A program made the translations under genes and the position numbers. The notes below the pieces were generated by a model, which saw nothing but the letters and a program-made list of their open reading frames with translations, was not told the origin of the DNA and made no database searches. Positions 3,095 to 64,000 of a stretch of DNA of 64,000 nucleotides are shown piece after piece. This stretch comes from Schmidtea polychroa (lineage: Eukaryota): positions 101,804,001 through 101,868,000 of the forward strand of contig CM097885.1 of NCBI GenBank assembly GCA_044892525.1, in the 5' to 3' direction. How positions within the stretch are numbered: position 1 is the first letter of the stretch; every line of letters begins with the position of its first letter.

Positions 3095-3127
<33 letters not shown>

Positions 3128-3865: not shown

Positions 3866-3892
<27 letters not shown>

Positions 3893-3949
3893 GAAATAAT
3901 TACTCCAAGTAGTTTGCAACTACATCAAGTAATAATAATAATAATATAT

Positions 3950-4164: not shown

Positions 4165-4395
4165 NNNNNNNNNNNNNNNNNNNNNNNNNNNNNNNNNNNN
4201 NNNNNNNNNNNNNNNNNNNNNNNNNNNNNNNNNNNNNNNNNNNNNNNNNNNNNNNNNNNNNNNNNNNNNNNNNNNNNNNNNNNNNNNNNNNNNNNNAACT
4301 ATCTTTGAACATAAAGAATATTATAGATTATTATTTTTATGGTTATTAGTTAATCCTTTTTTTTATAATGATAAAAATAGACTAACTAATAACAA

Positions 4396-5370: not shown

Positions 5371-5378
5371 TTAATGGA

Positions 5379-35614: not shown

Positions 35615-36133
35615 AAACATTCTTTTCACGATATATTTCGACAGTTTTCCTGTCATCAGCAGGTGGGATATAATAACTATGTAAAATAAGGATTTTAAAC
35701 AAATTTATTAATTATATATAAAATATTTTTTTATTTAATAAAAACATTGAATTATTTTTAAAAATTTATAATTAAATTAATATATTATTTTTTTAAATTT
35801 TAGCATTCAAAATTTAATTTAATAATTTAAAAATTTTATTAATTATTTTATTTAATACAACAATTACTACATACAATATAAAAAAACTTATTTAAAAACA
35901 CTCAAAACACAATTCTGTACATTAATTTTCGGATTAATTATTAAATTAAATTTTAAAAAAATAATATATTAATTTAATTATAATTTTTTTAAATAATTAA
36001 ATGTTTTTATTAAATAAAAATTTTTTTTATATATAATTAATAAATTTGTTTAAAATCCTTAATTTACATAGTTATTATATTCCACCTGATGATGACAGGA
36101 AAACTGTCGAAATATATCGTGAAAAGAATGTTT
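35615..36133. repeat. Long inverted repeat (foldback): arms ~35615-35800 and ~35948-36133, bracketed by N gaps
   Basis: aaacattcttttcacgatatatttcgacagttttcctgtcatca... is the reverse complement of ...tgatgacaggaaaactgtcgaaatatatcgtgaaaagaatgttt, with a few mismatches. Confidence 0.9.
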
Positions 36134-43579: not shown

Positions 43580-46500
43580 TGTAAAACATTAAAATCAGTT
43601 TTTGCTTCCATAAAATTTATTTCAGTAAATATTAATATCAAATTATATCTTCTTTAATCTTTCTTATTTAAACAAATTTTCTACGAAGATATTTTTAATT
43701 AAAATATCTTCTTATATTTTTTTTAAATATTAATCTAAAATTTAATTTTTAAAATTTTCAATTTAAAAATTTCTTCATCATAAAACTTCCTCATATCTCC
43801 CTTCTTAAGAAATTTTTAAGTTTTTCCACATTTCTTTCGATCCTTTTTCCATCTTCATTTCTTAAGATGTATCGTCTGTCATGCACTTTCTCTATCACTT
43901 TGTACGGACCTTCATACCTGTCCTGGCCTTTGTGGCGTGTTTCTACTTTTACTAATACTTCTTCTCCTACATTGAATTTTCTCCTTGTTTGTTCTTCTAG
44001 TTCTTCCTTTATCGGTATTTCTTTGGACCCGTACCATTTTTCCCTGTTAATCTTTTTTCCAAAAACTATCTCTGTCGGGCTTTTCCCTGTCGTTTTTTGT
44101 TTGGTTGCATTTAAAGTGAATTCGACTTCTGGTAATATCTCTGCCCAATCCGTCTTCTTTCTATCCTGTAAAGTAGCATTTATCAAATCCCGTATTGTCC
44201 TGAATTGTCTTTCTATCTGACCGTTTGTTTGGTGATGGTATGGACTCGAAAAACATAATTTAATATCTAGCATCTTTGTGAATTCTCTCATCATTCCTGA
44301 TTCAAACGCCTTTCCGCAATCAACTCTTATCTCCTTTGGGCATCCAAATCTTAAAATCCACTTTTCTAAAATCGTTTTCTTTATTGTTTTTTCGTCTTGT
44401 TTTGTTATCGCTGTCAAGACTTGATACTTACTATACTGATCTATTATGCCCAATATATACTTCTTACGTCCTTTTGTTTCTGTCAACGGTCCACATATAT
44501 CCACGAATATAATTTCGAACATTTCCTTCGAATCTTGTTTTTTTTACTGGTTCTTTCGTTGTTATTGTTAAAGCCTTGGTTTTTTGACAAATCTCACAAC
44601 TTCGAATAATTTCCTGAATCTGACTCCACAGGTGTTTTCCAACATATCTATCTTTCATATAATCGGCAATCTTCTCGACTCCAGCATGACACAATAGTCT
44701 ATGTATTTCCTTTATTGTTTCTTGTAACTCATTTTCAGGTATCATCGTTTTCTTTCGTACTTCTTCTACCATTCCATGTTGGATGTTGCTTCTTCCCTCT
44801 TCTCTGATCGAGTCTAGTAATCTGTTTTTTTATCTTTCCTTTCTTAGCTTCTTCGTGGGCCATTTGACATTGAACACACGTGTCACATTTAGTTCTCGAC
44901 ACCATGTCTGCATTTTGGTGATTAATACCATTTCTGTATTCTACTCTTATATCTAAACTGCTCAAATAATTGATCCATGTTTGGAATTGTGAAGTAATCG
45001 GCTTCTTGGTTGTCATCATAAACGTTATTGCTTTGTGGTCTGTCCTGAGCGTGAATCTTCTTCCGTAGAGATAGTGCTTAAAATGAATGCAAAAATAATA
45101 TACCGCCAATAATTCCTTTCTTGTAATACAATATCCTTTCTCGTGGCTCGTCATCGAGTGTGATCCATACGCAATTACTCTTTCCTTTTCATCTTTATCT
45201 CTTTGTGAAAGTACTGCTCCAATGGTATCGAAACTAGCGTCGGTATCTAAAATGAACTCCTTTTTCAGATCCGGAAAACATAAGATTGGCGCCGTCGTGA
45301 GTGCTAATTTCAATCCCTCAAACACGCTATTCGTTCCTTCACTCCATTCTAATTTTTTGTTACTTGGTCCGCTACATAATTGTTCTAACATCCTTGCCTT
45401 CTTTGCATAATCACTGATGAATCTTCTATAATAATTGCAAATACCTAAAAAGCTTCGGAGTTTCTTTACGCAATTAGGCTTCCCAAAGTTCTGTATGGCC
45501 TGAATTTTAGATGGGTCTGTCTGTACTCCTTCCTTGCTGATTATGTGTCCTAAGAATCTGATTTCTTCCTTTATTATTTGGCATTTTTCTGGATTAATCC
45601 TTAGGCCTGCTTCCTCAATCGCCTTTAACACTTCTCCGAGTATTGTATAGTTTATCTCTTTACTGCTTGAATAAATCAAGATGTCGTCCAAATACACCAT
45701 TGCTCCCTTTATTTTGCCTAATACTTTTGTCATCATTTCTTGGAACTTACCTGGTGCTGCTGTAATTCCAAACGGCATTCTGTTGCGACAATATTGTCCG
45801 TTCTTTGTTGAGAAAGCTGTTTTCTCCTGTGATTCTTCTTCTAGTTCCACTTGGTAATATGCATTACCTAGATCGATTGAGCTGAAAAAGACGGATCCTC
45901 CTAACAAATCCAACATCTCGTCTATGTTTGGCATTGGAAATGCCTGCCTCTCTGTTACCGCGTTCAGCTGTCTAAAGTCCAAGCATAGTCTAATATCCTT
46001 TTTCTCTTTTTTCCATACACATATTAGCGGTGTATTCCATGGATAGTTACATTTCCGTATAATTCCATTTTCGTACAAATTTTGTATTGCTTCTTCAATC
46101 TTTGATTCCAAATTTAGTGGTTGGCGATATAGTTTTATGTTTATCACCATCTTGTGTTTTACCAAATGTGTGCGACCCACATCCCATTTATCTGCCATAA
46201 ACACGTTTCCACTGTTTGTTATAATTTCCTTTAATCTGCTATCTTCATTGATCTTTAACTGTTCCAACGCTCGTATCAATCGTTCTTCATCCTTTATTTT
46301 TCTGCCAAATTTGCGCTTCAATGTTACAAATATAGTTCTTGTCTTTTTCACTAGCCTCGATATCTTTAGTTTTTAACAGTCTAAATCCAAATGTTTCTTG
46401 TAATTCGATTCCTCCAATCACATCTGGTGTCACTTTCTCCGCCACAATGAATATAACTTCCTTCGAAACATTTCCAATGGTTACTTGCACCTTCGTTTTC

Positions 46501-46842
46501 CCTATTGTCTCGATCGTACTCTCTTTTGCACATCGTAACTTATCGTCACTTTTCGTCAATTGTTGTCCTCGTAGCTTGTTAAAACAGTTCACACTCATTA
46601 CATTGATTCTTGCACCAGTGACTAATAAACAGACGAAATTTTCCCCATTCATCCTTACTGTTATACTAGGCCTTCCTTGCATTTTCCCATGAAGCAAAAT
46701 ACCATAAATACGACAAGCATTAAAAGCAGGTTGGCGTCGGAAAATAAAAGATTTTTTCTTCATAAGAGACAGGTTGGAATTATGGCCAATTTTTATGTCG
46801 AAATTCGATTAAAAGGGCATACACCTGAAATGCTGGAAAGGT
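43580..46842 (-). mobile_element. pol: Gypsy LTR retrotransposon B: protease-RT-RNase H-integrase plus 3' LTR (43580-43793)
   Basis: LLVTGA (protease, D>V), FSSIDLGNAYYQ, YLDDIL, LDTDAS, TDHKAI, HxxxxH...CxxC, integrase DICGP...VDCG...QTNGQIER. The PPT AAGAAGGGAGA is adjacent to a 214-bp TG...CA LTR. Confidence 0.92.
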
Positions 46843-47438
46843 TGTTATGAATATAATAGCAGCATACACCCCTTGAACGACTTCACCGACGAAGGGTATT
46901 GGAACACAGTTCGACAATAAAACCGTTCGCCAGCGAAATCTTTCTCTGGGGCTAATTATAGTAAATAATATAAGCTGAATTAAATAATTCAGCTTAAATA
47001 CAAATGCAAATAAATGATGCCCATGAAATAAATAATTACATAATTATGTTAGCTTAACAAAACAACTAGATTCATGTTTTAATTTTTCAATAAAAGTTAA
47101 ACGAATAGATCTGAACGATTTAGGTAAGACGACCACGAGCAAAAATAAATTTCAGAGTCAAAGAAAATTTTTGTCACTGGTTGAATTAGTAATAAAGTAT
47201 TTATTAGGAAGATCCCTTTCGATGTTTCCAGGTTGAGGCTATAGGGTGATGATAAGTAAATGACTATCCATTTTGGCGGTAAATTGGTCATCGAACTTAC
47301 GACACGGAACACTATTACCATCAGAGGATAACTATTCGTTCGAACCACTGTTTTACGTCTTAGCGGATTGATGAGAAAGATGAAATTTTTAAAAGGGGAA
47401 AAGACCATTATCGTTAACCATCCTTATTTATTAACAGA

Positions 47439-47801
47439 ATGTCTCAAACAAGTGAACCCGACGAAGCGGAATACAGGCAGAGGATCACGCGGCTCCGGAC
47501 CCGGTACATCTGGTACCGGATTCATGATTGGAACCGGGGGTTGGACCTAGATAATTATGGTCCGGTCATCCGAAGTGGCCCCGAGCCCGATGCCCCGGCG
47601 TGGATGAAAGTAGAGCCGACCAACAATGTGTTGCGAGAAGCCCGCGATCGAGCGGCCGGCGAAGTAGACGAGTCCCAGAGGCGACTGAAGAGACTCGAGC
47701 TCCAGCTCAGAGCCGAAGCAGAGGGAGTAACCCTCGAAGAGCTAGAAGAGGCAGATGCTCCTCCACGAAAACGAGGGAGGCCCCGTAAGAATCCTGCCTA
47801 A
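47439..47801 (+). CDS. LTR-encoded 120-aa protein with coiled coil, acidic patch and C-terminal AT-hook
   Basis: Intact ATG-to-stop ORF, GC-rich, ending EELEEADAPPRKRGRPRKNPA. Confidence 0.65.
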   Translation: MSQTSEPDEAEYRQRITRLRTRYIWYRIHDWNRGLDLDNYGPVIRSGPEPDAPAWMKVEPTNNVLREARDRAAGEVDESQRRLKRLELQLRAEAEGVTLEELEEADAPPRKRGRPRKNPA

Positions 47802-48112
47802 GCCGCCAGCAGTGGCAACTGGAATAACACTATCTAACAAATTTAATCCAATGATGTGGTGTTTGCGTTTGACTTCATTAGTAGCTAGTATAACAAATTA
47901 CAATTTTTGTTCATTAACCTTTTGACAACATCGTTCATCATGTATCTTCGTAGTATAATAAATTGTTTTTCTGTTATTACATTTGGACTTTATGGCTTAT
48001 GGAGTGTATTCATGATTGAGGTGACCCTTCCCATCCTTCTTCTATTAATTTTATGCAATTAATCGAATCACCTTTACGCACATGGAAGCGAGCGATGAAA
48101 TTTTATTATTGT

Positions 48113-48479
48113 TTTCCTTCAGTGTACTCGAAAATTACTCGAAAACCTACGCAAGGACCGCGAACAAGCCCAGCAACAAGCCGAAGACCTCCGAAGTCCG
48201 GTCGAGAAGCTTAAAGTCAAGTGCCGAGAGCTCGAAGGTACTTGGTTCAGTCCGGCTGAGATGAAGAAACGAACGACACACATCTCGCGACTCCAGACCC
48301 AGGCGAAGCAGGACCAACTCGAAATCCGAGCACTGAAGTTGCAAGTGTGCACGCTCGAGAGTAGATTGAACGAAAGGTTCATCCAGGACACTCTCCGAGA
48401 ACAGATTCGTCCACTTCCCGTGGAGCTGGCCAAGATATACCCCCGGCCCAGACGAGCAAGCCGAAACGTAAACGGTTAG
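48113..48479 (+). CDS. LTR-encoded coiled-coil ORF (frame open from ~48113; possible splice acceptor ending 48123)
   Basis: FLQCTRKLLENLRKDREQAQQQAEDLRSPVEKLKVKCRELE...MKKRTTHISRLQTQAKQDQLEIRALKLQVCTLESRL; preceded by ttgttttccttcag. Confidence 0.5.
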
Positions 48480-48962
48480 GGCGAAATACGCGAGAGAAAT
48501 TGAAAAGGGCCTGGCTGACCGAGCAGGAAAAATCGAAAGAGCCTGCAGCCACTCCACGATCCTGAGGAATGTTTGAGAGTGCGACCCCTCCTGGGTAAAA
48601 CCGACATTGTGATATTGTAGTGTTTAAATAAATAATTTCATTGTCTGATGGGTATGTGATTAAACTTGTGATTGTCCCGAGCAGGACGGTCGACAGAAAA
48701 GAGTTTGGGAAAACAATCTCGATAAGGGACCGAAATAAATCGGACACATGCCTTCTATCGGCCGTCCGTGAACCCTTGGAGTGCTCGACAATTATAGTGC
48801 TCTTAACGCGCTCACTTTTTGCGAGTACTCCACCCCTTGGTACAGCACCAACGTTGATTACTCAACGGGTACCAAGTGGAAAATAATGTTGCATGCTGGG
48901 TTACGCTGGTAACAGCACTAAAGAGCAAAATATTTGGTCATCAGTAACCCACCATACAAATT

Positions 48963-48980
48963 TGGGGGCTCAGCCGGGAT
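48963..48980 (+). promoter_or_regulatory. Primer binding site, tRNA-Pro
   Basis: TGGGGGCTCAGCCGGGAT matches 16/18 positions of the canonical tRNA-Pro PBS TGGGGGCTCGTCCGGGAT. Confidence 0.88.
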
Positions 48981-49673
48981 TGTAAAAATTTAATTGGTGA
49001 AAGAACCCGAGAATAGATATAATGGGGAGAGAGTAAAAGCTGATATAAAGTGATATGCATTCAAGAACGAGCAAATTGCTTTCCCAAACACTTAAACTTA
49101 GTACATGGATATGTGAATATGATGGAATATATGTGAAATGTTTAAATGAGTAATGGGAGTTTTAAAGTGTGTCAATAGATGAATGTATTGAAAGTGAGCA
49201 TGAGAATACTGTACGAATAGCGTAGTAATAGAATGAAATGATGATAAACGAAAATTAAAACTAAAACAAAATATAGTAAAGTTTTTAAATATTAACGATT
49301 AATAAAATGTAAATATACGAAATAATAAAAATTTAAAAATAGGGGAAAAGGGGGGATAGCACGCTAATAAAAATAAAACGAATGAACAGCGTAATTAAAC
49401 TTAATTAGAAAACGTGTAAATTATGGCGATAATGAATGGGATATGGGTTATATATAATGAAACGATTATAATAAAATCACAAGATCATGAATGAAATTTG
49501 CGCGTGATAGAACATAAAACAGAGGAAGACGGGGTTGCTAAGAGTGATAAGTAGAGGTTTATGGAAGCACTAATAAAATAAGGTATTCATGATATTAGAG
49601 GGAAAACGATAAAAGGGGAAAACGACGCGGAGTATTAATAAAAAGAGCATTTTAATTAATAAGTCTTAATTAG

Positions 49674-50156
49674 ATGGAATCAACCGACTACATTACAAAG
49701 AGACTCGAAAAATTCGTAAATTTAAAACGCAATTCGTTACAACGGCTAAATCGCAAAGCGGACCAGTTGGTGAAAATCCAAGACGAGATTAGCTTGAATC
49801 CAAGACCGCAAGCTTAGGAAATATGTGTAATGATGAAAATAGCAACGCCTAATGCAGAATTGACCACTAAAAGAGTCTACCAAATTCAAAATTTACGATT
49901 AGATAATGCCAAATTTAACATCAAATGGCAGGAGATAATGATAAAAATGGAAACAATCGAAGAAGAAATTAAAGAAGCAATCGAACATCAAGTTAAAGAT
50001 TTTAGAAAATGCTTCATATGCAGAATCAATGAAATACGAGTAATGACGATCCCATGTGGTCATTTATGTTACTGCGAGAATTGCGCAATGAAAATTAAAC
50101 GATGCAACGTATGCGATACGAACGTTAGAGAGAAAATTGTAATATACCTCCCGTAA
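49674..50156 (+). pseudogene. Coiled-coil + IAP-type C3HC4 RING E3 ligase ORF in the retroelement leader (frameshift near 49820)
   Basis: CFICRINEIRVMTIPCGHLCYCENCAMKIKRCNVCDTNVREKIVIYLP aligns to the XIAP/cIAP RING including the terminal hydrophobic tail. An upstream frame MESTDYITKRLEKF... starts at 49674. Confidence 0.85.
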
Positions 50157-50894
50157 GGAGATGTTGTCAAATAAATTTCTTTTGAATGAATATAAAATAA
50201 GATAATTATTAAATTATATTAAAAATCCATTATAGCAACCGAAAGGTATAAAACATAAGATGAACATAGACATATAAAGGACACATAATACGTTAAATAA
50301 ATAGACAAGCAACACAGCAATTAGAAATATTAAAATCAAAATTGAATGCAGGACTGATCATAGTCGTATGAATGAGCTGATCGATAAGATCAGTACGATT
50401 GTTATTTCCAATTTTCATTTCTTCCTGTTTTATTATTTTGGCATAGAGAGATACAATAATGAGGGGATGACAAGTGGATCGTCCTTACGACACTTGCCCG
50501 GATGGGGAAATCCTGATCACCCTGATGAGAGAATGTAGTAGGATCCATCTCAAATGTTGGGGAGTTTCTGTCGAGTGACTGATCACCACTTGTGGTAAAT
50601 GAACCAACGCGATTATTATATTTTTTTGTCTGGGAGACTGGGATTGACTAAAAGGGTGAATAAAAATAGAAAAATAAAATAAAAATTGAAAACGCGCGCT
50701 AAACGTTAAAAATTTAATCCGAGAGCAGCTGCGGATTTGAAGAAACCATTTTTGGACTTCAAATCGAATGAAGAGTAATTATTTTTTCCCTAGCGAGTGA
50801 TGAGGCACCCGAGTACAGCGGCTAACCACCGGACTGTAGTGTCCAGGATATTATCAGCCAAGGGACTGATGATGCTGGATCACCCAATACAAAA

Positions 50895-51860
50895 ACCTGG
50901 ATACCACACCGAGTATTGGGCGCATTTTTTTGTGAGTTGCTAGCGGGATTTGATACAAAAACACGGAAGGGTAGCGATCGAGAGAGACCCAGTTACCTAC
51001 ACCGAGTATTAAGGAGCCCAGTGAAACGGTTGTGAGATGCGAGTCAACCGGTAAAGGACTCGTACTCAATAGGCAACCAAGATTGGACTAGTTGTGAGGC
51101 GGAGGACCGAAAGTCAACTGCATATCCAATTTCCTTTTATTTTCACTAGTCGGGAGATCTGATTCATCACTTTTGAGAATCACGATCGAGGCGATTAGGC
51201 ATTTCCGTGTTTTTTAAATCCTGACAGATAGGATGTTTTTCTTCGTGATTATTGCTAACAGGGGTCGGTACAAAACCCGGATGCCCACACCGAGTACCGA
51301 TAGGCCCAGTGAAACGGCGATGAGATTAGAGTTACCGGTATTAGACTCTTTTCAATAAGCGGCCAAGAATTGAGCCAGTTGTGAGGCCTCAGCAGATTAG
51401 GAATTTGAGTAGGAGGAGCCTTGAATTTTTAATTAGTCCGAAAGTCAACTGTCAACTCAATTTAATCGCGGTAGGGACGATAGTAGGTGTAAAAACCGAA
51501 GGCTTCTGGGGGTTGAAGAAACCTCATTTAGGGCATTTGAAACCGGTCAGGGACCGAAGACTGCGAATACGGCGTAATGGTGTAAAAGCCCAGGCGTCTA
51601 GGAGTCGTAAAAGACTTCAAATTATGATTAAACCGGCCGGAAGCCGATGCCGACGCGGAGGTCTAACAAACCAAAGCGTTGATGGGTAATAGTAGATTAT
51701 ATGGCGTAACGGTGTAAAAGCCCAGGCGTCTAGGAGTCGTAAGACTTCATGAGATTAAAATGAGTTGATTAAACTGGCCAGAGAGCCGATGGTAATTGAG
51801 TGAAATGATTTAAATGAAATAAGAGAGTTGATTAAACCGGCCAGGGAGCCGATGGTAAAT
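50895..51860 (+). repeat. Imperfect direct repeats in the 5' leader
   Basis: cacaccgagta... at ~50903, ~50999 and ~51287 (the last two extend ~130 bp); ggcgtaa.ggtgtaaaagcccaggcgtctaggagtcgtaa at ~51571 and ~51703; gattaaac.ggcc...gagccgatg three times. Confidence 0.85.
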
Positions 51861-52617
51861 GAATGTAGACGCAGAGATCGCGCGAACCAAAGCATCGATG
51901 ATTAACTATGAAATTGATTAAATTGGAATAGATTAAGTGCGACAAATATGTAATGAGTAAAGGAAAATTATGATGAAGCGCCGGCGCAAGAGAAAATGAA
52001 ACCAGTTTTTGCATGGGGAAAAGCGAACGAATAGATAGTAGTTGAATTATTGAATTTTATTTATTAATGATACGTTTATTTTGATATTTATGTGATTGAT
52101 ATTATATTTATATGATGATTATAAAAGGGATAGATAATTGATACGACTATATAGATAATTGGTACGAGTTATAGATAATTTAAAATCGACTTAAAATCAA
52201 AATGGGGTGAATAACGAGAAGTGTAGGAAAGCTAGAAAATTTGAAGCGAAGGAGCAGTAAAATAAAGGGGAAATGGAAAGTAAATGAAGGGTTTAATAAA
52301 GAGAATTTATGATATGTACTAGAAGTGTTAATTATTTTAGAATAAAGCAAACAATTCAGAAAGAAAATCAAAGAAATCAAGGAAGCAATAGAAATCAAGG
52401 GATATAAAGAAATCAATTAAAAGCGAAGAATCAAAGAAATTAATAAAACCAAATCCAAGAAGAATTAGAGAATCGTAAAGATTAAAGCGAGACAATAATT
52501 AGAAAACATCAAGCTCGATCGACGAAGTAGAAAATTTATCAAAGGATAGCAAAAGGAGGAAAAATTGATAGTATAGCTAGCCGAACCAGGCGAAAAAGTA
52601 AAGGAAACCTCAGTTTA

Positions 52618-55600
52618 TTGGAAAAGGAAGAGATAGAAAAAGCCAAGACCAACAGACAACTACACAGGAAACCGGCATCAGTGGAAAGATTATTTGAATC
52701 AAACAGTTTAACTAACGAATTTGAGAACAGCGACGATTTTAAACGAACCGAATTAGATCCAATAAGCGACGCCGAATCAACTGACGAAGAGGAAAATATA
52801 TCCGAGACAACAGAGATAACCGTACTGTGCCAAGAGATAATGTCGGACGGAAACACGAATGAACAAAGGGTAACGGACCCACCAGGAACAAGTAATGTTC
52901 ACGTCAACATTGGAGAATTCAGAGAGAAATTTCGAGGAGAGCCATTCGATGGAAATATAAACCAGCTGGAAACGTTTATAAAAGAATTCGAAATATGCAT
53001 TACGATATGTCACTGGCCAGACATAGTCATACGAGAGCGAATACCCCTATATCTAAAGGGAAGCGCCCAAGATGTATATTTAGAGGCAAAATGCGATGCA
53101 ACAAAGTTGAGAACATGGAAAGAGATCAAAGAGTTTTTAATAAAAACCTTCGGTACCGAAAAGGAAGGAAATCGGAAAATGTTGGACTTTCTACATCGAA
53201 AGCAGAAATATAACGAATCCAATGCACTGTACGCATGTGAAATGAAACGATTAGCAAGAGAAGCCTTCGATTCAAATCAACCAGTTCCGGAAGATAAGAT
53301 AATAGCCGTATTCGTAGATGGTATGAAGCGAGAGGATATACGAGCAACCTTGGGATGTCGAGCACCAGAGATGCCGGAAGAAGCACTAAAAATGGCTAAC
53401 AAATGTGAAACCTACTTAACACCAATACAAGTAGCAGCTATGACAGCAGCCCCAGCAGCTCCAGCAACAACAGCAACAACTACAAACAACCAAGTCAATA
53501 ATGCAAATCCAGTAATGAATCAATTCATCCCAGGATCGCAACAGTTGTTCAAAACCCCACAAACAAGAAACCAAGACAATAGAGGTAATATTCAAAATTT
53601 TACTAATAATTTCAGGAACAACGACATTAACAATCGAACGTGCAATATATGCCAACGATCAGGGCATTGGAGCAATGAATGTTATAGAGCAAGGATGTGT
53701 CAAAAGTGTGGGAGAAGAGGACACACGGAAAACGTCTGTAGCGGACCCATGAAGTCTATTGGCAGAGGAGGAACCAGAACCTGCTACAATTGTAATCAGC
53801 CTGGACACATGGCAAGGGAATGCAAGATGAGAGTGAAACCAAATCAACCAGGATCAAACAATCCAATTCAGAACACACAAATCAACCTCATGCAGGAAAT
53901 CGAACAATTAAAAGATATGATCCAACGAATACCGGTGAATAATCAACAACAACGAATCAACATGATGCAGAGCACCGAGGAAATCCGGAAGCAACCAAGC
54001 AGGCAACAACAAGATCAACAACGAATCGAATGGCAAAGATTACAAAACGAAGAAGCCAGAGAAATTCAAGAAAGATGGAAACAACGGGACGCGAATCCCG
54101 GAAGAATAAATATGATGAGATTAACAAATAAAGAGGAACCGCACACTGCGGAGCAGTGTGTTAACAACGAAGGGAGTGGTCCGATAATAAACGAGGAGAT
54201 AAAAACGACAAAAGAAAATGAGATTGATCAACGGACAGAATTAAGCAGTGAAGAGAAAATACAATTGATTAAAGAATTTACCCAAGAGGAGAAAGAAAGG
54301 AGACAAAAAAGAGATGAGAGTAAAGATGAATCAAAAAGTAATGAAATAGTTACAAAAATTCGAATTCAGAGGGTACTACTACAAAAAATCGAAGACAGAA
54401 TCAAAAACGAAAACCCTACATTAACTAAGGAACAAATAAAAGAAAAAGTGAAAGAGCATTGGTTCAGGAAAAATGAGTGGTTCGAAAAGAAAGAACCACA
54501 TACCAAAGCTAAAATAAACATGCTGAGACAAATGCGGAGTGACCAGACGGATCAGGAAGACGAGAAAAGTGAGGTGAGTAGCCTGGGAGGTGAATTATTT
54601 CAGTCAAGTGAGGAAAATAACGAACCAAAAACACCTCCAAACAGTGAAACACCTCAAAGTAGTGATGAGAGTGAAAATGATGACATGAAATCAATGATAG
54701 AAAAAGATGATGAGGAGATATTTGAGGAAATTTTCGACACAGTAACAGAAATAGAGCGAAATGAGAGCTACATCAACGAGTTAATATACAGAAAATGCTT
54801 AAAACTTATAACTCAAGTATACCAGTGTGAAGGAGGTATAATAACGGCAGCATGGAAAGAATTAACAACAAAATATAAAGAGAAACTAAAGGAAGCAGAC
54901 CCAGATCAATATCAAGTAAGTATTCAACACCCTGAGATTCAGATACAGACTATTGAATTAAAAGGAACAAATACTGATGAACTGTACAACTGGGTACAGG
55001 AAAAAATGGGAACGAGCCATAAAAATAAACAATTATATGTCGATGGTTACAAAGTTAAAATGGGCATACATTTGGTAGATGCGATGATATGGCCAAACGA
55101 AACGAACATCTTAACCTTAGAGAAAACCAGAGACGACGAATCAGTGGCAGAAATGTTCAAGAAAATCCAACAAGTGTTTAACAATGAAGTGGAACCAGAA
55201 TTGGAAAAGATCGAACGGAAAATAATGAAAGAAAATCAAATAATCTTAGTCAAACAAGCTATCGATCAGGCAAGGAAATATATTAATAGACTAAGAGAAA
55301 GATGGCCGCAACTAATGAAACAATTTGTCAAAGACGTACGAGACACGGAAATTATGAGATTCGAAGATAAACGAGCGACAGAATTGATATCAAAATACGG
55401 AGAATACGAGAGAACCAAATGTGAACAAGAAACGATAAAAATAAAGGTGAAATTGCCAAATGAAGAGAAACAAATAATAGAAGTTAATCCCGATTGCCAA
55501 GTTGACGAGTTAGTGCAAATCATAGATCAAGAGATCATCCAAAAAGCTCGAGAAAATAGTGAGGATGGAATGATCGAAGATGTGATAATAATGTACAACC

Positions 55601-55995
55601 GGCATATGTTAGAAAGAGGAGACCGAACTGTAATTTACGAACTAGGAATCTGGGAAGATGGAACCGTCATCAATATAATCGCGATGGATGAACCATCTGG
55701 TGGGCACAAAAACGCCACCAAAACCGATCAACAAATCAAGAGATTCCAATGGGGAATGAGAGCCAAGATGGACCGAATAATAGATATTTATAACCATTGG
55801 CTAAAAGATGATAAACTAAAACTAGCAGCATTCAATGATAAAGATTGCAAACTGATACCATGGAAAAAGGTGTGGATTGAAAGTGAAGCTCGATGGGATT
55901 GGGAACAGCAAAAGTTGGAACCAAATTGGATAGATAATATACCAGAAGAGATTGCAGCAGTATGGGTAAGAGAGAAACCGATCGATACTTACTAG
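52618..55995 (+). CDS. gag: Gag with three CCHC zinc knuckles (53641-53823), coiled-coil/acidic linker and two ubiquitin-like domains (~54910-55125, ~55430-55680)
   Basis: Capsid-type PFDG..QLETFIKEFE...W...IPLYLKGSAQDVY; knuckles CNICQRSGHWSNEC, CQKCGRRGHTENVC and CYNCNQPGHMAREC. The ORF ends at an in-frame TAG followed by DILPQE. Confidence 0.92.
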   Translation: MEKEEIEKAKTNRQLHRKPASVERLFESNSLTNEFENSDDFKRTELDPISDAESTDEEENISETTEITVLCQEIMSDGNTNEQRVTDPPGTSNVHVNIGEFREKFRGEPFDGNINQLETFIKEFEICITICHWPDIVIRERIPLYLKGSAQDVYLEAKCDATKLRTWKEIKEFLIKTFGTEKEGNRKMLDFLHRKQKYNESNALYACEMKRLAREAFDSNQPVPEDKIIAVFVDGMKREDIRATLGCRAPEMPEEALKMANKCETYLTPIQVAAMTAAPAAPATTATTTNNQVNNANPVMNQFIPGSQQLFKTPQTRNQDNRGNIQNFTNNFRNNDINNRTCNICQRSGHWSNECYRARMCQKCGRRGHTENVCSGPMKSIGRGGTRTCYNCNQPGHMARECKMRVKPNQPGSNNPIQNTQINLMQEIEQLKDMIQRIPVNNQQQRINMMQSTEEIRKQPSRQQQDQQRIEWQRLQNEEAREIQERWKQRDANPGRINMMRLTNKEEPHTAEQCVNNEGSGPIINEEIKTTKENEIDQRTELSSEEKIQLIKEFTQEEKERRQKRDESKDESKSNEIVTKIRIQRVLLQKIEDRIKNENPTLTKEQIKEKVKEHWFRKNEWFEKKEPHTKAKINMLRQMRSDQTDQEDEKSEVSSLGGELFQSSEENNEPKTPPNSETPQSSDESENDDMKSMIEKDDEEIFEEIFDTVTEIERNESYINELIYRKCLKLITQVYQCEGGIITAAWKELTTKYKEKLKEADPDQYQVSIQHPEIQIQTIELKGTNTDELYNWVQEKMGTSHKNKQLYVDGYKVKMGIHLVDAMIWPNETNILTLEKTRDDESVAEMFKKIQQVFNNEVEPELEKIERKIMKENQIILVKQAIDQARKYINRLRERWPQLMKQFVKDVRDTEIMRFEDKRATELISKYGEYERTKCEQETIKIKVKLPNEEKQIIEVNPDCQVDELVQIIDQEIIQKARENSEDGMIEDVIIMYNRHMLERGDRTVIYELGIWEDGTVINIIAMDEPSGGHKNATKTDQQIKRFQWGMRAKMDRIIDIYNHWLKDDKLKLAAFNDKDCKLIPWKKVWIESEARWDWEQQKLEPNWIDNIPEEIAAVWVREKPIDTY

Positions 55996-56001
55996 GATAT
56001 A

Positions 56002-56520
56002 TTGCCACAAGAATTCCAAAATGATTTACAACCAGAAGAAGATGAAGAGATACGAGAACCGGTAAGGTTAGCGCCATTCACGTGGAAAATTGAGAATTGG
56101 ATGGAAAAGATAAAATCAGCAAAGGAAGAGAAAATCACACGATTAGTAAGTCCACCGTTCTACTCAGGATTAGGTGAATACAAGATGAAATTGCGAATAT
56201 ACCCGAACGGAGACGAGGTAGGAAAAGGAAGTTACGTATCAGCATTCTTCATCATCTGCAAAGGGAACTATGACGACAAGGTACCATGGCCGTTTAGCAG
56301 AAAAGTAACGATAGCAATCGAACACTGAAAGATAGCCTTAACGTACATAAAGAAACAATGAAACCAGATCCAAGGAGCACCTGCTATCAACGACCGACGA
56401 CATTAGAAAATATCGCTTCTGGGACGTCTAAATTAATACGTCTAAGTTACATTGAGAATGATTAGTCAATATTCGTGAAAGACAATGCCATCCAGATCAG
56501 AGTGGAGGTGGAAACAGAAA
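56002..56520 (+). pseudogene. TRAF-C (MATH) domain within the polyprotein (frameshift ~56326, in-frame stop 56463-56465)
   Basis: FTWKIENW...SPPFYSG..EYKMKLRIYPNGD..GKGSYVSAFFII.KG.YDD..PWPF..KVT, then KPDPRSTCYQRPT..ENIASG...FVKDNAIQIRVEV: the classic TRAF-C motifs. Confidence 0.92.
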
Positions 56521-57480
56521 AAGTAATGAACCAACGACTGAACATACCGGAAAACCAACCGAGAATCTGTATGATGAGGAAAAGAGTGCCTGATTCAGGG
56601 CATCTACCAATAGACGCCGACGCAGATGAGGAGGAAGCAGCAACATTGCTAGAAGCACAAAAGTGTAAGGAGTTGATGGAGATATTACAAAACGGTGCGA
56701 AAAATCGTCGACGAGCGGTAGTAGAACTAGCAAAATGGATAGCCGAATCATGCAAAAGAATTCAAAACCTTCGAAAAATCGTTAAAGCGATTGAGGAATA
56801 TCGACGGGTATACGTATGGTACCCTGAGCAATTCGGTGAAATCATCCGGAAATGGAAACAACAAGAGTGGGCCGAAAACTCACCCGAGAAATATCAACTA
56901 AAAATATTCTTGCCAGATTTCGAACCAATGGAAAAGGAATTCTACACGACAGCCAAAGTCAGGGAAGTTAAAAAGAGAATACTTTATGAACTTCCGTTCC
57001 ATTTACAACACGAGGGGCGATCATTAGACGACGATGTTGAAATTGGTGTGACACCACTCCAAGGAGAAATTGTGAACAGACTAACGGTGAGTAAAATTGC
57101 AGGTAGAGAATTAAGGAGAAGAGAGATAAAGCAAAAATCATCCACCCAACCAGGAAGTTTGGACACACCAGAAGTCCCAAATGCGGTTAGTGAAGTGACG
57201 ATCGAAACAACGGGAGAAGACGAAATACTAGACGAATTACAAGAGAGAGTAGAAGCAGGCGAGATTATGAGAGCATCACAATCAGGAGATCTATTTATGC
57301 GCGCAAAGACAACCAGTAGAAACGACAGAAGCCGAGACGGATTTAGATAATGTAGAAAGAGGTGACAATAAAGAAGTAACTACAACCGACGAATGGAGCA
57401 ACTGGAGAGTAGATCCAGGAGCGACCACGTCAAAAGATATAACTTACAATCCGCCAAAACGGAAAGAAACCGGAACAGCT
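56475..57480 (+). pseudogene. Polyprotein segment with helical region, third ubiquitin-like domain (~56890-57090) and acidic linker (frameshift ~57300)
   Basis: KYQLKIFLPDFEPMEKEFYTTAKVREVKKRIL...LQHEGRSLDDDVEIG fits a beta-grasp pattern. An alternative frame from ~57305 runs into ATG 57481. Confidence 0.65.
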
Positions 57481-60075
57481 ATGGATCGACGAACAAGAGG
57501 AAGACCAAAAACAGATAAAGCAGAGGCAGAACCAAAATCCAAAATTCAGGCGCAAATGGAACAGGTAAAAACTAAAATGGATAAACTAAGTGCATTAGTA
57601 AAACAAGTCAAAGTGAAGACAAGCGTCCAAGAACAAGAAACACGATGGATAAACGACTTATTAGCTAACATGTTAGCGTTAGCAAATCCAGATGTGAAAA
57701 GAGTAATGAGGAAGGATAATATCCCAACCGAAGCCAAACAATTATGGGCGGTATTGAAACCGATAATAATGAAAATCATGGATAATAAAATTCGATTAAC
57801 GTTAAAAGATCCCGTGGAACTCAGATTAATTGTGGAACATCTATTAAGCAGATCAGAGGACCAAAATCGATATTTAGTGGGATTAGCATATTTAGTATAT
57901 AACGTTATTGGTCAATATAAAAAACGAATGCCAAATTACAACGCAACTGGTTACGAATTCACAGCAACGGAAGTAATCAAACGATCAATAGAACCATATA
58001 TACTTGAACAAGGGGGATGGAGAAACTTCATCGAATCAACTGGGAAGAAAGATCAAACGGAAATGATGCAAGCAAGGTTACGCGACTTGCTAACTGAATT
58101 CGAAGGGACAATCAATATGAACGATCCAAGAGCAATCCGAAAAGGAATGAATGCCATAATAACCACAATATTGATATGGATGATGTGTATCAAAGGAACA
58201 GAGTCATTTGCAGTGTACGACTGCGACAACATAAAAATCCATGAGAAATATTCATTAAAGGATACAGAAGACTGTAAAGCGGCAAACCCAAGAAAATCAC
58301 AAAGAGTCATGGCATCAGTCTCGTATAATGTATATCAAGAAGCAGATTTCATCAAAACCATGGTCCAAGAATGTACGGTAACTAGAAAGATATTCGCGCA
58401 TCACTGCGGTTCATCCTCCCACTCAACAATCATAGAACCGGGATTAGAATCGACAGTAATATTACTATCAAGAGAGGAATGCGAGGAAGGATTCCGGTCG
58501 GGGAGAATCCACTTAAGACAAGGGATTGAAATTGCTGCAGAACCAGGGAAAATAAAAACGACTCGCGTGTATACGGCAGGCAGAATAACCAAAGGAGATG
58601 GAACATGTGAGACAGGAACATACACCCTGAACGGACAACTGGTTAGTGGAGTGGTCGTAATAGAAAGCTACGAAGCTAAATTAGAAAGGTATCAAGGTTA
58701 TTTCGACCCTGACACGCAAGCAATGAAGAAATACCCAAGCTGTCTCGCATCAGATCGATCATGTTCAACCGGAATGTCAACTCTGGTATACCATGCAGAT
58801 CAGAAAGTATGTCGACTAATGTTACTCAAGACAGCAATATTCGAAGAAATCCAAGGGAAAGTGTACAGTGAACCAAAAGGAGAAGCAGAAAAACGAGCGA
58901 TGGAAGAGTTGAGAGCAAGGAAAGGATTCAGAGAAGACGTAATAACCTCGAAATTGGAATCGGAAGTGACACCCAAGGCGATAATCTCCAAAGACGATGG
59001 AATAGGAATGAGGTTCATAAAGAACAAAGTGGTGAGTAAATGCGATGAGATGGTGATCAGCACCAATTATAAAGGGATCTACTTGTCACGGAGAACCCTA
59101 GCAAATGCAGTCGGAAGACTAAGCGAAAAGGATGTCAAATTATATTTATATGCTAATAACAAAATGGATTTCTTATATCACAGAGGATTAACATCTACGG
59201 AAAAAGTCTATCATGATCTGTTAAGAAACGATTGCCTGCTCAACAAAGAAATATTGAGAACAAAATTAGCAATGGCAATTACAAACCCAGATAACGCAAT
59301 TCCGTTACTACCGCTGCAAGAAGGATATTTCGGACGAATCGTGGGCGAAGTAATGTACACCTACCAATGCAAAAAGATAATTGCAAGATTGCCGGAAAAC
59401 CCTATTATACCAAGGAATAAATGTGCAAACGAACTCGAAATCATCCACGAAGGCAAACCCAGATTTGTGCAAGCAGTCACCAGGATAATGAACCCGGTAG
59501 AGTTTCAACCAAACCTGTTTAATTGTAGTAATGCATATGGACCAATGTATGAAAAAGAGGATGGACAATGGGTGCAATTTCCAAGTAAAACAATCGTAAT
59601 AGCACCCAAGAAATTTGGATTGTCGGAACTAACAACAGAATTAGAATTCAAGCCGATAGACGTATCCCAGAGTGGATTATATACACCAAAAGATCTTGAA
59701 TCAGCAAGAGCCCACATGTTATTTCCAGCACAGAGACAAGCGATCTTGTCAAATATAGTGACTATTTCTGGAAGAAATAATTATGGGGAGAGCCCGAATT
59801 ACGAGCTATTATTATCACCAAGTCACTATCAACAAGCAACAGCAAATATGATGAAGGCTATGTGGGGTCGATTTTTGGTATTTGGCCAAATGATGGCAGG
59901 AATACTCGGAATTATTCTGATAATACAAATAGTCAGAGTGATACTAACTCAGATGTTAGCATGTTTTGACATCTATAAACGCGAGAGAAAAGTAAATTGG
60001 AAACTTACAATTGGATTCTTACCGTTCTTAGCGAAAACAATGGTGTTGCATGGACACTCAAAGGATATTTATTGA
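57481..60075 (+). CDS. env: Bcl-2-like domain (~57640-58040) + internal signal sequence (~58150-58206) + chuvirus/Monjiviricetes-type fusion glycoprotein with TM (~59870-59960)
   Basis: BH1-like QNRYLVGLAYL and BH2-like YILEQGGWRNFIE; glycoprotein motifs AVYDC..YSL..C, QECT....HHCG..SH, GDGTC, ANNKMDFL, NDCLLN, GYFGRIVGEVMYTYQC and CANEL...TRI. Confidence 0.88.
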   Translation: MDRRTRGRPKTDKAEAEPKSKIQAQMEQVKTKMDKLSALVKQVKVKTSVQEQETRWINDLLANMLALANPDVKRVMRKDNIPTEAKQLWAVLKPIIMKIMDNKIRLTLKDPVELRLIVEHLLSRSEDQNRYLVGLAYLVYNVIGQYKKRMPNYNATGYEFTATEVIKRSIEPYILEQGGWRNFIESTGKKDQTEMMQARLRDLLTEFEGTINMNDPRAIRKGMNAIITTILIWMMCIKGTESFAVYDCDNIKIHEKYSLKDTEDCKAANPRKSQRVMASVSYNVYQEADFIKTMVQECTVTRKIFAHHCGSSSHSTIIEPGLESTVILLSREECEEGFRSGRIHLRQGIEIAAEPGKIKTTRVYTAGRITKGDGTCETGTYTLNGQLVSGVVVIESYEAKLERYQGYFDPDTQAMKKYPSCLASDRSCSTGMSTLVYHADQKVCRLMLLKTAIFEEIQGKVYSEPKGEAEKRAMEELRARKGFREDVITSKLESEVTPKAIISKDDGIGMRFIKNKVVSKCDEMVISTNYKGIYLSRRTLANAVGRLSEKDVKLYLYANNKMDFLYHRGLTSTEKVYHDLLRNDCLLNKEILRTKLAMAITNPDNAIPLLPLQEGYFGRIVGEVMYTYQCKKIIARLPENPIIPRNKCANELEIIHEGKPRFVQAVTRIMNPVEFQPNLFNCSNAYGPMYEKEDGQWVQFPSKTIVIAPKKFGLSELTTELEFKPIDVSQSGLYTPKDLESARAHMLFPAQRQAILSNIVTISGRNNYGESPNYELLLSPSHYQQATANMMKAMWGRFLVFGQMMAGILGIILIIQIVRVILTQMLACFDIYKRERKVNWKLTIGFLPFLAKTMVLHGHSKDIY

Positions 60076-60084
60076 ATAAAAAGA

Positions 60085-61041
60085 TTGTTGAAAATATTAA
60101 CGCAAATGAAAGGGACAGACGAAGAAGTCGGACGTAAGTTCAAAGTGATAATGAGATTAGAAGCAGAAAGAACTCAAGAGAAAGCGAAAAGAACCGGGAA
60201 GTGGAAAAAGTGGATGAACCTCAGACGAAACGATGACAGCGACAACGACAATGATGATTTCGACGACGATGATAATAACCAAGGAGGAGCAATGCTGATA
60301 AACAAAAATACAGCCACTTGGGAAAACGAAAAAATGAAACCATGGGGATCACCATATTTACAGGCATCAACTAATGGACCAATGCGACGACCAGGAACAA
60401 TGAGAGAACGGATAAGAATGGGAACCGGAAGATTACCCATACCAAACATTTATCCAACAGCTTATGAACCAAATTGGGCAGCAATGGATCCAACGATGAT
60501 CAAACAGGCTAAAAGTGTAGAACAAGAAGTTGAGACACGAACGATTGCGGTATTGCAGACACCAGCCGGACCCTCATTAAACATCACGGTTGAAGTAAAC
60601 GGAATAGAGATGGATGCAATGATCGATACCGGAGCAAACTTTTCGGCAATAAATATGAATATGCTACCAGGTAGACTATGGCCATGCATTGAAGAGACAA
60701 CCATGGATGTAATAACATGCAGCAAACAATCCATAGCGACAGTAGGAAGAGTATGGTCAACGATTGAATATAGAAGGGTTAAAGTTACAACGTACCTCGC
60801 AGTCATTAGACAGCTAAGCGTATCATGTATAATTGGAACAGATGTAATGCCGGAATTGTTGAAAGAAATTGTGATTGATTTGAGTTCCATGAAATTAAAA
60901 GATAAAACGGGACAGATATGCACAATGAGAACAGAAGTGAGATGTTCCGAAAAAATGATAATACCAGCACGTACCCAGACCATATGTTATGTCAAAGTCG
61001 ATAATGAAGCCAAAGGAAATATGATATGTATATTTTTGTAG
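60085..61041 (+). CDS. pro: Linker + retropepsin aspartic protease (DTG at 60625), in frame with env across a single TGA
   Basis: VEVNGIEMDAMIDTGANFSAI...SCIIGTDVM, followed by the Gypsy-type post-protease spacer IIPARTQTIC. Confidence 0.9.
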   Translation: MLKILTQMKGTDEEVGRKFKVIMRLEAERTQEKAKRTGKWKKWMNLRRNDDSDNDNDDFDDDDNNQGGAMLINKNTATWENEKMKPWGSPYLQASTNGPMRRPGTMRERIRMGTGRLPIPNIYPTAYEPNWAAMDPTMIKQAKSVEQEVETRTIAVLQTPAGPSLNITVEVNGIEMDAMIDTGANFSAINMNMLPGRLWPCIEETTMDVITCSKQSIATVGRVWSTIEYRRVKVTTYLAVIRQLSVSCIIGTDVMPELLKEIVIDLSSMKLKDKTGQICTMRTEVRCSEKMIIPARTQTICYVKVDNEAKGNMICIFL

Positions 61042-61043
61042 AT

Positions 61044-61802
61044 ATGAATTATTTAAAAGAAAGAGAATCAACGAGTAACGAAGAAAGAAGGTCAAACGAC
61101 CAACCCGAACAAAGCCAGAATACGATACCAATCAAACAAGAACCGATGAAATATTATAGTAATAAATGGAGAGTCAGCAAGAAGTTGTTCAGAACAAAAA
61201 TTGCAAATCAAAATGAGAGATTACGAGATTGAGACAGCAAATTGTTCAATCAAGGCGATTAATAAACACTGTCAAGCAAGAAATTTTGAGGGAAATAAAT
61301 TAATCGAAACGAAAAGAGACAGAAAATAAAAACCTGAGACAAGAGATAGTAGAGTTGAGAGCTCAGGCAGTAATCGAAGACTATTGGAAATCAGAAACAA
61401 GGAAGTTGAAATATCGATCAAGTTTATATCGAACAGTTAGAAGCACAATATGCTTATGCAAAAACGAGAATGCGAGAAAGTAAAAAAGTCGAGAAGAGAA
61501 ATGCAAAACTCAAGGAAGAGATCAAGGAACAAAGAGAGAAAACAGAAAAACAATGGAAGTTGAAGGAAAATTACCAGAGAATTTTAAATCAAAAACGACG
61601 AAGCATGCAGACACTGCAGACGACAATGACCATCAAGCAGAGAAAATGGAAAAGTAAAGAGAAGCAATTACAAGAAATACCAGAATTAAAGAAACAGTTG
61701 GTAGCAATGCAACTCGAAATAATAAGAATGAACGAGTTGAGTAAAAGACGAGCACCTGAACCTCCCGTAAAATTAAGGGATGAGGTCGGTGACTCCCAAT
61801 AA
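61044..61802 (+). pseudogene. Disrupted coiled-coil accessory ORF
   Basis: K/E/Q-rich heptad-like segments in the fragments 61026..61232 and 61470..61802. Confidence 0.55.
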
Positions 61803-61861
61803 ATGAGACAAAATAACTGTGTAAATAAATTGTAAATAAAGCCAAGTAATTATTGTTAAAG

Positions 61862-62710
61862 ATGAGAAGCCTAATCGTGGTGATGATTATAATGACAATG
61901 CCAAGAATCCTGCAAGCTGAAGAATCAATGATCAGATGCCAGAAAGAATACCCATACCGAAGAGAAGATAGCACCTGTAGTAGCTTTTAATCGATCTGCG
62001 AAAAACCCAATGAGGAATGCGAACAAATCAACTCGCAATGTTCGCAATGTCCACAAACAACAGAAAATTCGATGGAAGTGCAAATGGCTCAGACAATAAA
62101 AACAAGCTTGGAACAAGAAATGAAAGTTATCAGAACCCAGATAGCAACATTTGCCAAACAATGTCAAAGCCAGAAATCAAAGAAAGAATCCCAAACAGAT
62201 CCAGCCGCAATGAGAATGATAAAAACATTAGAGGAAATAAAACAACAAGTAATAACAGCCGCCGATGGACGTTCAAGCAATTGCGGAATGGTAGTGAAAT
62301 CTTTAGAGGAAATGAAAGGAAAAATAACTTCCATCATCAAAGAGGAACCCAGCATTAAAAAGGAAGTGACGAAAAACTTGAAAGAAATAACAAGAGAAAT
62401 CTTAACTGCCATGAACAGGAATCCGATGAACTCCGAAAAGATGATTAAAACCCTTGAAGAAATTAAAAAGAAAGTTGTCAGCTCGGAAGAAAACAAACTC
62501 GACAAACCCGAAAAGTCGGAAATTGTAGATATAACCCAAGTGAGAGAAACTATGAACAAACTCAAAGTAATAGAACCAAGAGAGTCTGAACCCCTCACAA
62601 AATCGATCCTATTAGCGGCGAGCCTAATGGTAAATATCACCATACTGAGCCTGATTGCACTCAAACCCAATTTCAGCAAAGAAATAAACAAAACCTTCAA
62701 ACTAAAATAA
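61862..62710 (+). pseudogene. Accessory type-I membrane-protein-like ORF: signal peptide, Cys-rich head, repeated coiled-coil stalk, C-terminal hydrophobic anchor (one in-frame TAA)
   Basis: MRSLIVVMIIMTMPRILQA-EESMIRCQKEYPYRREDSTCSSF*SICEKPNEECEQINSQCSQC is in frame with 62072..62710, which contains SILLAASLMVNITILSLIAL. Confidence 0.65.
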
Positions 62711-64000
62711 CAATCACGAAGTATTCGTATCCCAATAGAAGAACCACTAGTCCAAACAACGAGCCAACCAAGATATTTCAAATCTTCTCCAAACATTGAA
62801 ACCAGAGCCGTCATCGAGACGAGATCCCGAACAACAGAATTCTACTAATGTGACATCACGACAGTATAAACATTTCGTGACATTATAAAACATTACCAAA
62901 CAATTGTGATTTCAAAGACTGAGACTGATTATGATTAATACCATTAATTCTTGAGCATGATAATTTAATGTGGATCGACCTCGGTCGTTCTTTTTCTTCA
63001 TCTTTCAACCCATCTGTAAAATGTAGTGTAATAGTAACATTTTTATGTATGTGGGTATTGAGGTCACGACCCTGTAGCTCGTAGACCCAATTTGCATGTA
63101 GGCACTTGTAATATAGTGCAAGTATTCTGAAAAATAATCTTATTCATCTTCTGATTTAAATTGCGGGTCGCAATTTTATGGGCCCCCGAGTGTTTTATGT
63201 TGGGCTAGAACTGACTTCTAGACCCAAACTATAATTGTGACTGGAATGCGTAGGTACATAACATGAAAAAAGCAAAAAGTATAGTTAAATATTAAAAATA
63301 CACCAAATAAACAATATTAATTAAAAGAGAAAACAACAAAAAATATAAACACAGAAATTAAATAAAATTATACAAAAGCAAAAAGTTATGCAAAATCTAA
63401 CTCAAAAATAACCAAATAAACATAGAATTACAAAAAACCAAACTCGAATAACTTAAAAAATGGTAAAAACAGTAAAAAATTCCAGAAAAACCCAGAACAT
63501 TCCATAAAAATGGCGACGATCATCACAAAAGCTACCTTGAACAATAAAATATTAGAAAAATAACTAAATTAGTAATAAAAATAAAAATTCGTAAAAAGAA
63601 ATTCAGAAAAACGTCAATTAAATAAAAACTAAATTAAAAGTAATATGGAATGTTCTGGAACCGTTCCAAATCCATCATGGACGTAGAATTAATGAAAAAT
63701 TATTAAAAATTTAAAATTTAAAAATAAAAACAAAAATTATGGCATAAAAATTGCCATTAAAAATATCAAAATCGCGAAATAGAAAATTCTGGAATAAAAG
63801 GAATTCGAGTTTGTTTTAATGCATCAATACATACACATGTACAAAATAGGTATATATACTGACGCATTTCAGTCACAAAATCAATCACTTTATGCCAAAT
63901 TCATTTTTTTGATTTTGTGAAAACTCTTTGGGAAAAATCTTAATAGTAAGGAGTACTTTATTTACATTATAATATGTTTTTATAATATGTTTTATATGAT

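Follow-up and report, generated by a model that had tools for sequence, protein, structure and literature searches.

We examined a 64,000-nucleotide (nt) stretch of AT-rich eukaryotic scaffold DNA (the window), in which positions 58207-59960 had been described in an earlier note as a chuvirus/Monjiviricetes-type class III fusion glycoprotein in a Gypsy-like element. The glycoprotein gene (env) lies on the forward strand, in a stop-free open reading frame (ORF) of 934 codons (57271-60075). Along this strand, the order of domains is RING ORF, gag with CCHC knuckles, MATH, a weak Bcl-2-like stretch, env, and protease. With a probability of about 0.9, we assign the region to a defective Burro-type element, that is, a giant Ty3/gypsy long terminal repeat (LTR) retrotransposon, of which it forms the env module; the genome is that of a flatworm, most likely a planarian.

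All 10 motifs that we searched (YDC, QEC, HHCG, GTC, NNKMDFL, CLLN, GYFGRIVGEV, YQC, CANEL, and TRI) were present in the single frame 57271-60075, where they span nt 58216-59487. A Pfam scan of the env frame returned Monjiviricetes_fusion (PF24664) as the sole family, with an E value of 1.7e-69 and a score of 234.9 bits against a gathering cutoff of 27. This match is far beyond chance and answers the profile check that the earlier note had proposed. The same note had described an uninterrupted ectodomain of ∼580 amino acids (aa). The stretch is indeed free of stops, but its 584 codons include a transmembrane helix detected by hydropathy, and the ectodomain proper covers ∼552 aa (58207-59862). 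It contains 14 cysteines, each of which corresponds to a cysteine in 102 to 110 of the 110 rows of an alignment composed of the query and 109 of 153 relatives (those left out were mostly fragments). The score and the conserved cysteine scaffold together place the protein in the Monjiviricetes/chuvirus-type PF24664 family. The ectodomain sequence carries one N-glycosylation sequon and no furin site of the R-x-K/R-R type.

The layout is that of a type I membrane protein. An internal signal-like hydrophobic stretch, judged by eye, lies immediately 5' of the ectodomain (58147-58206), and a hydrophobic stretch preceding the first ectodomain cysteine was also seen by eye in 13 of 13 relatives inspected. 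Downstream of the ectodomain, a transmembrane helix and tail (59863-60075, with a hydropathy peak at 59863-59976) are ended by a stop codon at 60073-60075. Env does not form an ORF of its own, as its frame opens ∼310 codons upstream and runs through the Bcl-2-like stretch and then the signal-like stretch before reaching the ectodomain. The stop at 60073-60075 falls where relatives continue into the protease; the alignments to relatives P0005 and P0014 extend to 60084 and 60123, respectively.

The ectodomain, modeled as a monomer, gave a mean predicted local distance difference test score (pLDDT) of 88.8 and a 48-residue central helix (residues 312-359). In a fold search of the PDB, 36 of the 36 rows listed were herpesvirus glycoprotein B (gB), with a best E value of 6.4e-14. 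Against predicted viral structures, the best among the matches listed were chu-like glycoproteins (E 2.3e-36), with template modeling (TM) scores up to 0.74 and identities of at most 22%. The predicted fold is that of a gB/chuvirus G-like class III fusogen with a long central helix. Pfam, hydropathy, the cysteine alignment, the model, and the fold searches all bear on this assignment, and the class of glycoprotein named in the earlier note was borne out. The outcome that the note had set against its own proposal, a best match to an env of the baculovirus F/errantivirus type or to a protein of the host, did not arise. We also considered an F-type (baculovirus F-like) errantivirus env of class I, which is ruled out by the absence of an R-x-K/R-R site together with the gB-like fold.

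The env module is flanked by other parts of a retroelement on the same strand. The gag ORF (52531-55995; first Met at 52840) contains CCHC knuckles (zf-CCHC, E 7.5e-11) and a long acidic/coiled region, resembles relatives P0022 and P0011, and ends at a stop codon at 55993-55995. A weak ubiquitin-like stretch is present in it near 55440-55530 (OTU1_UBXL, E 0.008-0.04, the match at 0.04 being below the cutoff). A MATH/TRAF domain follows (55996-56510). Its first part matches MATH_2 with an E value of 8.9e-20, and the rest is found in a different frame (E 3.1e-05); the reading frame shifts near 56325, and a stop codon interrupts the domain at 56463-56465. Next comes a linker ORF (56466-57350) that overlaps the env frame, with a frame change within 57271-57350; it matches relative P0021 weakly (E 6e-05) and no Pfam family above the cutoff. 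Downstream of env, and in the same frame, are a linker and a retropepsin-type aspartic protease (60076-61041, with the protease at ∼60583-60858; RVP, E 7.9e-06), soon after which this frame closes. In the 5' leader, an accessory ORF (49818-50156) encodes an IAP-type C3HC4 RING finger (PF13920, E 2.4e-11). A search of the three forward frames of 46801-52901 for a BIR domain near the RING finger returned none.

Upstream of the signal-like stretch and in the env frame, positions 57700-58070 encode a putative Bcl-2-like helical domain. A profile of 7 sequences of this stretch matched Bcl-xL at an E value of 0.0016, and relative P0010 matched Pfam Bcl-2 at 0.00096, below the cutoff, while a single-sequence search of the PDB gave an E value of 0.6. 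The model of the stretch has a pLDDT of 44; 42 of the 47 rows in its Foldseek list belong to the Bcl-2 family, all with E values above 0.4. There was no Foldseek match at an E value of 0.001 and no Atlas match at 0.9. VIA-align gave a best Z score of 6.6, and none of the 50 rows listed was a Bcl-2 protein. These negatives do not count as evidence against the assignment.

The protease is the last recognizable part of pol. A tblastn search with Gypsy pol proteins found nothing beyond 60999, the six frames of 60901-64000 contained 0 Pfam families at an E value of 0.01, and there is no trace of reverse transcriptase (RT), RNase H, or integrase downstream of the protease. Because the copy lacks RT, the term Gypsy-like rests on gag, the protease, and the relatives. 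The CCHC gag and the retropepsin are both features of Metaviridae. Among the 22 of 153 relatives that were scanned for domains, picked as the best or the longest, 12 carried env followed by protease in a single protein, 5 of 22 also had RT and RNase H, and 4 of these had integrase as well. The relatives with such a pol share the env clade of the query (see below) and show the Ty3/gypsy domain order and Gypsy-type Pfam domains (RT_RNaseH and Integrase_H2C2), in agreement with the Ty3/gypsy-type carrier proposed earlier. One of the 22, a distant relative, carries DUF5641, a domain that we take to be linked to BEL/Pao. Six relatives (P0005, P0006, P0008, P0009, P0012, and P0015) have at least 2 aspartic-protease-like stretches after env, an unusual duplication.

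The relatives came from an exhaustive search, which found 951 at an E value of ≤0.001 and of which the best 150 were listed, whereas a word-index homologue search returned only 4 proteins. The nearest are retroelement polyproteins, at 27-46% identity. We built a FastTree tree of 109 rows (P0012 was dropped as too short) and an IQ-TREE tree of 32 rows, both midpoint rooted and neither with a named virus. In the former, the query belongs to a clade of 17 rows, which also takes in every one of the 9 env-protease polyproteins in the tree (Shimodaira-Hasegawa [SH] support, 99); the latter recovers the same clade with a support of 98 in the SH-like approximate likelihood ratio test (SH-aLRT). The DUF5641-bearing row lies outside the query's clade in both trees. 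Because the rows include no named virus and the root is a midpoint, the trees give the nearest kin but no donor, host, or direction. As judged from these sequences, the closest kin of this env are envs of other retroelements, it does not stand out as a fresh capture, and no donor can be named. A BEL/Pao (Belpaoviridae) carrier was considered and rejected, since env precedes the protease, close relatives have Gypsy-type pol, and the DUF5641 row belongs to another clade.

The arrangement corresponds to that of known planarian elements. Arkhipova and Yushenova (2019; PMC6431247) described Burro1, which is GYPSM1, and Burro2 to -4 as giant Ty3/gypsy retrotransposons of planarians. According to that paper, Burro encodes a single polyprotein with gag, CCHC, MATH, ubiquitin-like, BCL2-like, env, protease, dUTPase-like, and RT domains, in which env, placed between BCL2 and protease, gave multiple matches to mononegavirus glycoproteins of arthropods and fish; the elements were called possible proviruses. 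The window shows the Burro arrangement, env and protease in one frame with a weak Bcl-2-like stretch upstream in the env ORF, and it also has the accessory domains MATH/TRAF and RING. Chary and Hayashi (2026; PMC13524379) reported gB-type env resembling Chuviridae glycoproteins beside Gypsy pol across animals, from cnidarians to insects, and argued for an ancient origin and codivergence. In their article, the order is gag-env-pol in Platyhelminthes, and 9 flatworm elements are tabulated, 6 of them from Schmidtea mediterranea, with 1 to 215 copies. When positions 58309-59088 of the window were compared by hand count with domains I and II of one of these elements, Smed_errantivirus_6, 171 of 260 residues were identical, with no indel and with 8 of 8 cysteines shared. 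This identity (66%) points to another family or another species; six pairwise values given for Schmidtea elements range from 32 to 64% (PMC13524379). A chuvirus-type env in flatworm Metaviridae is therefore already published, and this copy is one more member of the family rather than a new arrangement. The novelty implied by the earlier note falls away, as a 2019 paper had already set out the combination for Burro (PMC6431247) and flatworm gB-type elements are covered by PMC13524379.

Several points weigh against the assignment to a Burro-type element. The Bcl-2 and ubiquitin-like assignments are below the cutoff or weakly supported. Neither a BIR domain nor an ankyrin repeat was found here, where Burro1 has both and a total length of >30 kb would be expected, although the copy is deleted and may extend past the window. 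No LTR pair or target site duplication is present in the window, which ends 3 kb past the protease, and without RT the copy cannot be placed in an RT tree. The TM score of the ectodomain model to solved postfusion forms of gB is only ∼0.4. Finally, the likeness to Burro is to its published description and not a direct sequence comparison.

The copy is broken at several places, namely by the stop at 55993-55995, the frame change near 56325, the stop at 56463-56465, the frame change within 57271-57350, and the stop at 60073-60075, and pol is lost after 61041, downstream of these five breaks. The earlier note had contrasted the intact env frame with stops in the neighboring domains. The contrast is real but not significant. 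When five breaks were placed uniformly over 8201 nt, the probability that none fell in 58207-59960 (1754 nt) was 0.30, compared with 0.12 for the whole env ORF and 0.09 for gag, whose frame of 3153 nt is likewise unbroken; the positions of the breaks are the analyst's reading, and 4 of the 5 cluster in 55993-57350. Since the break-free stretch fits chance (P ∼0.30) and gag is unbroken too, the open env frame gives no indication of selection, and selective preservation of env was rejected on these values. The statistics fit neutral decay, from which the env frame has probably so far escaped without a break. Translation of env from the gag start is blocked because of the upstream stops and frame changes. 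With breaks between gag and env, and with RT, RNase H, and integrase gone, the copy is dead as an element. It cannot be infectious on its own, contrary to the proposal of the earlier note that it is a candidate infectious agent, and at most supplies fragments of gag or env. The window contains six runs of N (at 4165, 17006, 21397, 35361, 36136, and 40893; 132-218 N each), as in a scaffolded draft assembly. None lies inside the Burro-type element, and repeat misassembly may be a cause of the loss of pol.

The earlier note had inferred an independent capture by a lineage of Metaviridae. The idea that this Gypsy lineage recently and independently acquired a chuvirus glycoprotein would fit with chu-like glycoproteins being the closest named viral structures among the matches listed, and with an env clade that stands apart from the DUF5641 row, so that the Gypsy and BEL/Pao versions do not form one shallow clade. 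Yet the nearest kin are retroelement polyproteins, with named viral glycoproteins at ≤22% identity, the midpoint-rooted trees show neither donor nor direction, and Gypsy elements with a gB-type env, which range from cnidarians to insects, have been taken to argue for an ancient origin (PMC13524379). With this env inside a deep clade made up of envs of retroelements, and with ancient codivergence as the published reading, we consider such a capture unlikely.

We regard it as very improbable that the copy is a non-autonomous variant without pol, mobilized in trans to this day and keeping its env on purpose, because the polyprotein is blocked by four breaks that separate gag from env and no 3' LTR is found within the window; on the other side, a stretch resembling a primer-binding site (PBS), gag, env, and protease are present, and the RT-RNase H-integrase part is cleanly absent. 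The explanation to which we give the least credence is that the host now uses the env of this copy, either by itself or together with the Bcl-2-like domain, as a co-opted cellular fusogen, with an internal start and the stop at 60073 as the gene end. The 934-codon frame is unbroken and keeps the signal stretch, the 14 cysteines, and the transmembrane helix, it offers in-frame Met codons at 57481 and 58147 and a stop just past the env tail, and Burro1 has been reported to be beneficial to planarian stem cells (cited in PMC13465017). However, the probability of an unbroken frame by chance is 0.12, and gag is equally unbroken at 0.09.

The outer parts of this element are less well delimited. A GC-rich stretch at ∼47000-48958, whose terminal CA lies four bases upstream of the PBS-like stretch, is tentatively a 5' LTR or the 3' part of one, as suggested by its composition and position; blastn found no second copy in the window. 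It includes two small ORFs without a Pfam family, 47418-47801, which ends in what we take to be an AT-hook-like motif, and 48099-48479, which is coiled-coil. The PBS-like 18-mer (48963-48980) presumably resembles a tRNA-Pro site; the window contains no tRNA gene for comparison. In the 3.5-kb leader between this site and gag, imperfect direct repeats of 40-115 nt with 74-90% identity occupy 50987-51865. On the 3' side, 61042-62850 is a probable accessory region with decayed coiled-coil ORFs (61410-61802 and ∼61864-62710). It has no family match, and its membership of the element is judged from the purine-rich strand bias that it shares with the rest (A+G of 0.65-0.68 up to 62500). The forward-strand ORF at ∼61864-62710 has a signal-like start, a cysteine cluster, a repeated coiled-coil, a C-terminal hydrophobic stretch, and one stop near 61988, and may represent an accessory protein of the element that is secreted or held in a membrane.

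Other mobile elements and a host gene occupy the rest of the window. A Polinton/Maverick-like remnant (3-7886, forward strand) encodes a protein-primed DNA polymerase B at 5343-7886 (PF03175, E 2.4e-16). Its ORFs 3-1070, 1063-1431, and 1368-2351, which have no Pfam match above the cutoff, are presumably capsid-region-like genes, and a 15-bp tandem repeat (4798-5027) encodes repeated PSVIK inside ORF 4393-5370. A short ORF fragment on the reverse strand (28790-29095) resembles, we assume, a Polinton packaging ATPase. Decayed Gypsy RT-RNase H fragments lie at 19289-20594 on the reverse strand (tblastn to the pol at 44735, E 9e-36). An inverted repeat at 35615-36133, with 152-nt arms that are 94% complementary and 215 nt apart, is located between two N gaps and is either like a miniature inverted-repeat transposable element or an assembly effect. 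A second compact retroelement remnant (41429-43568, forward strand) has gag with a knuckle, a protease-like part, a partly deleted RT, and DUF7047 (E 2.2e-13). An env-less Gypsy pol on the reverse strand (43791-46808; protease, RT, RNase H, and integrase, with frame changes) is a separate element back to back with the Burro-type element; we rejected it as part of the latter, as it is on the opposite strand and upstream of the PBS-like stretch. The host gene is an intronless seven-transmembrane rhodopsin-like G protein-coupled receptor (GPCR; 25543-26715, reverse strand) without a Pfam match. Its first Atlas cluster is commonest in Platyhelminthes (score of 0.97), a lead only, as nematode and mollusc clusters score 0.96-0.97. 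The GPCR cluster and the 66% match to the Schmidtea element agree with the flatworm host put forward earlier, with the latter carrying more weight.

From established signal peptide and class III fusogen biology, we infer how such a protein would work in intact relatives, where gag, the accessory domains, env, and pol form one polyprotein. The internal signal stretch would thread the ectodomain into the lumen of the endoplasmic reticulum, signal peptidase would cut before the ectodomain, and the transmembrane helix would anchor env and return the protease and pol to the cytosol, where the element protease would release the cytosolic parts. A trimer of env in the particle membrane could then fuse with the target cell in the class III manner. 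More speculatively, and for the family rather than for this copy, intact Burro-type elements might be enveloped planarian viruses that pass between cells or animals, with a membrane-threaded polyprotein like that of flaviviruses; the cleaved env signal might become the C-terminal anchor of the Bcl-2-like domain and couple the particles to the control of apoptosis in stem cells. We hold this proposal as a doubtful one. PMC13465017 cites a 2026 Dev Cell paper for the protection of planarian stem cells by the RING-BIR region of Burro1, and PMC8532177 shows that Burro1 is derepressed upon RNA interference (RNAi) against smedwi-2. The limited literature set searched contained no functional test of a Burro env, and the entry mechanism of gB-type env elements is described as not understood in PMC13524379. 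How these elements enter cells is the question that matters, and it is tractable in planarians, where RNAi can be used and Burro is abundantly expressed. An intact multicopy element would be a better subject than this copy, which carries little weight as a discovery, since the combination is already in print for planarians, and whose contribution is a confident model of the gB type for the env of a Burro-type element, earlier compared to F-type proteins.

Compared with known systems, the copy shares with Burro a CCHC gag, a MATH domain, an env before the protease in frame, a RING finger, and putative, weakly supported ubiquitin-like and BCL2-like domains (PMC6431247). It differs in being broken, in lacking RT, RNase H, and integrase, and in the BIR and ankyrin domains not found here, though decaying copies with stops and frameshifts were noted in Dugesia japonica (PMC6431247). 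Burro env was likened by HHpred to gypsy Env and to baculovirus and paramyxovirus F (PMC6431247), whereas the model here is a gB-like class III one. With Smed_errantivirus_6 and the other errantiviruses of group C1a with an HSV/gB-type ENV, the copy has in common a gB-type ectodomain between signal and transmembrane segments and the gag-env-pol order; the flatworm elements of this group are intact, unlike this copy, and the table in PMC13524379 assigns no PBS to the six Schmidtea elements, whereas a PBS-like stretch is present here. The likeness to herpesvirus gB is one of overall fold, at 9-12% identity and with the low TM score given above, and the env described here has neither the partner glycoproteins gH, gL, and gD nor a furin site. 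The glycoproteins of Chuviridae/Monjiviricetes have the same Pfam family, cysteine scaffold, and predicted fold, although no named viral glycoprotein exceeds 22% identity to this env. BEL/Pao elements carrying a chuvirus-type glycoprotein were reportedly described by Dezordi et al. in 2020. The chuvirus G and BEL/Pao env are encoded by a stand-alone ORF or by an ORF after integrase, whereas the env of this copy is embedded in a gag-env-pol polyprotein.

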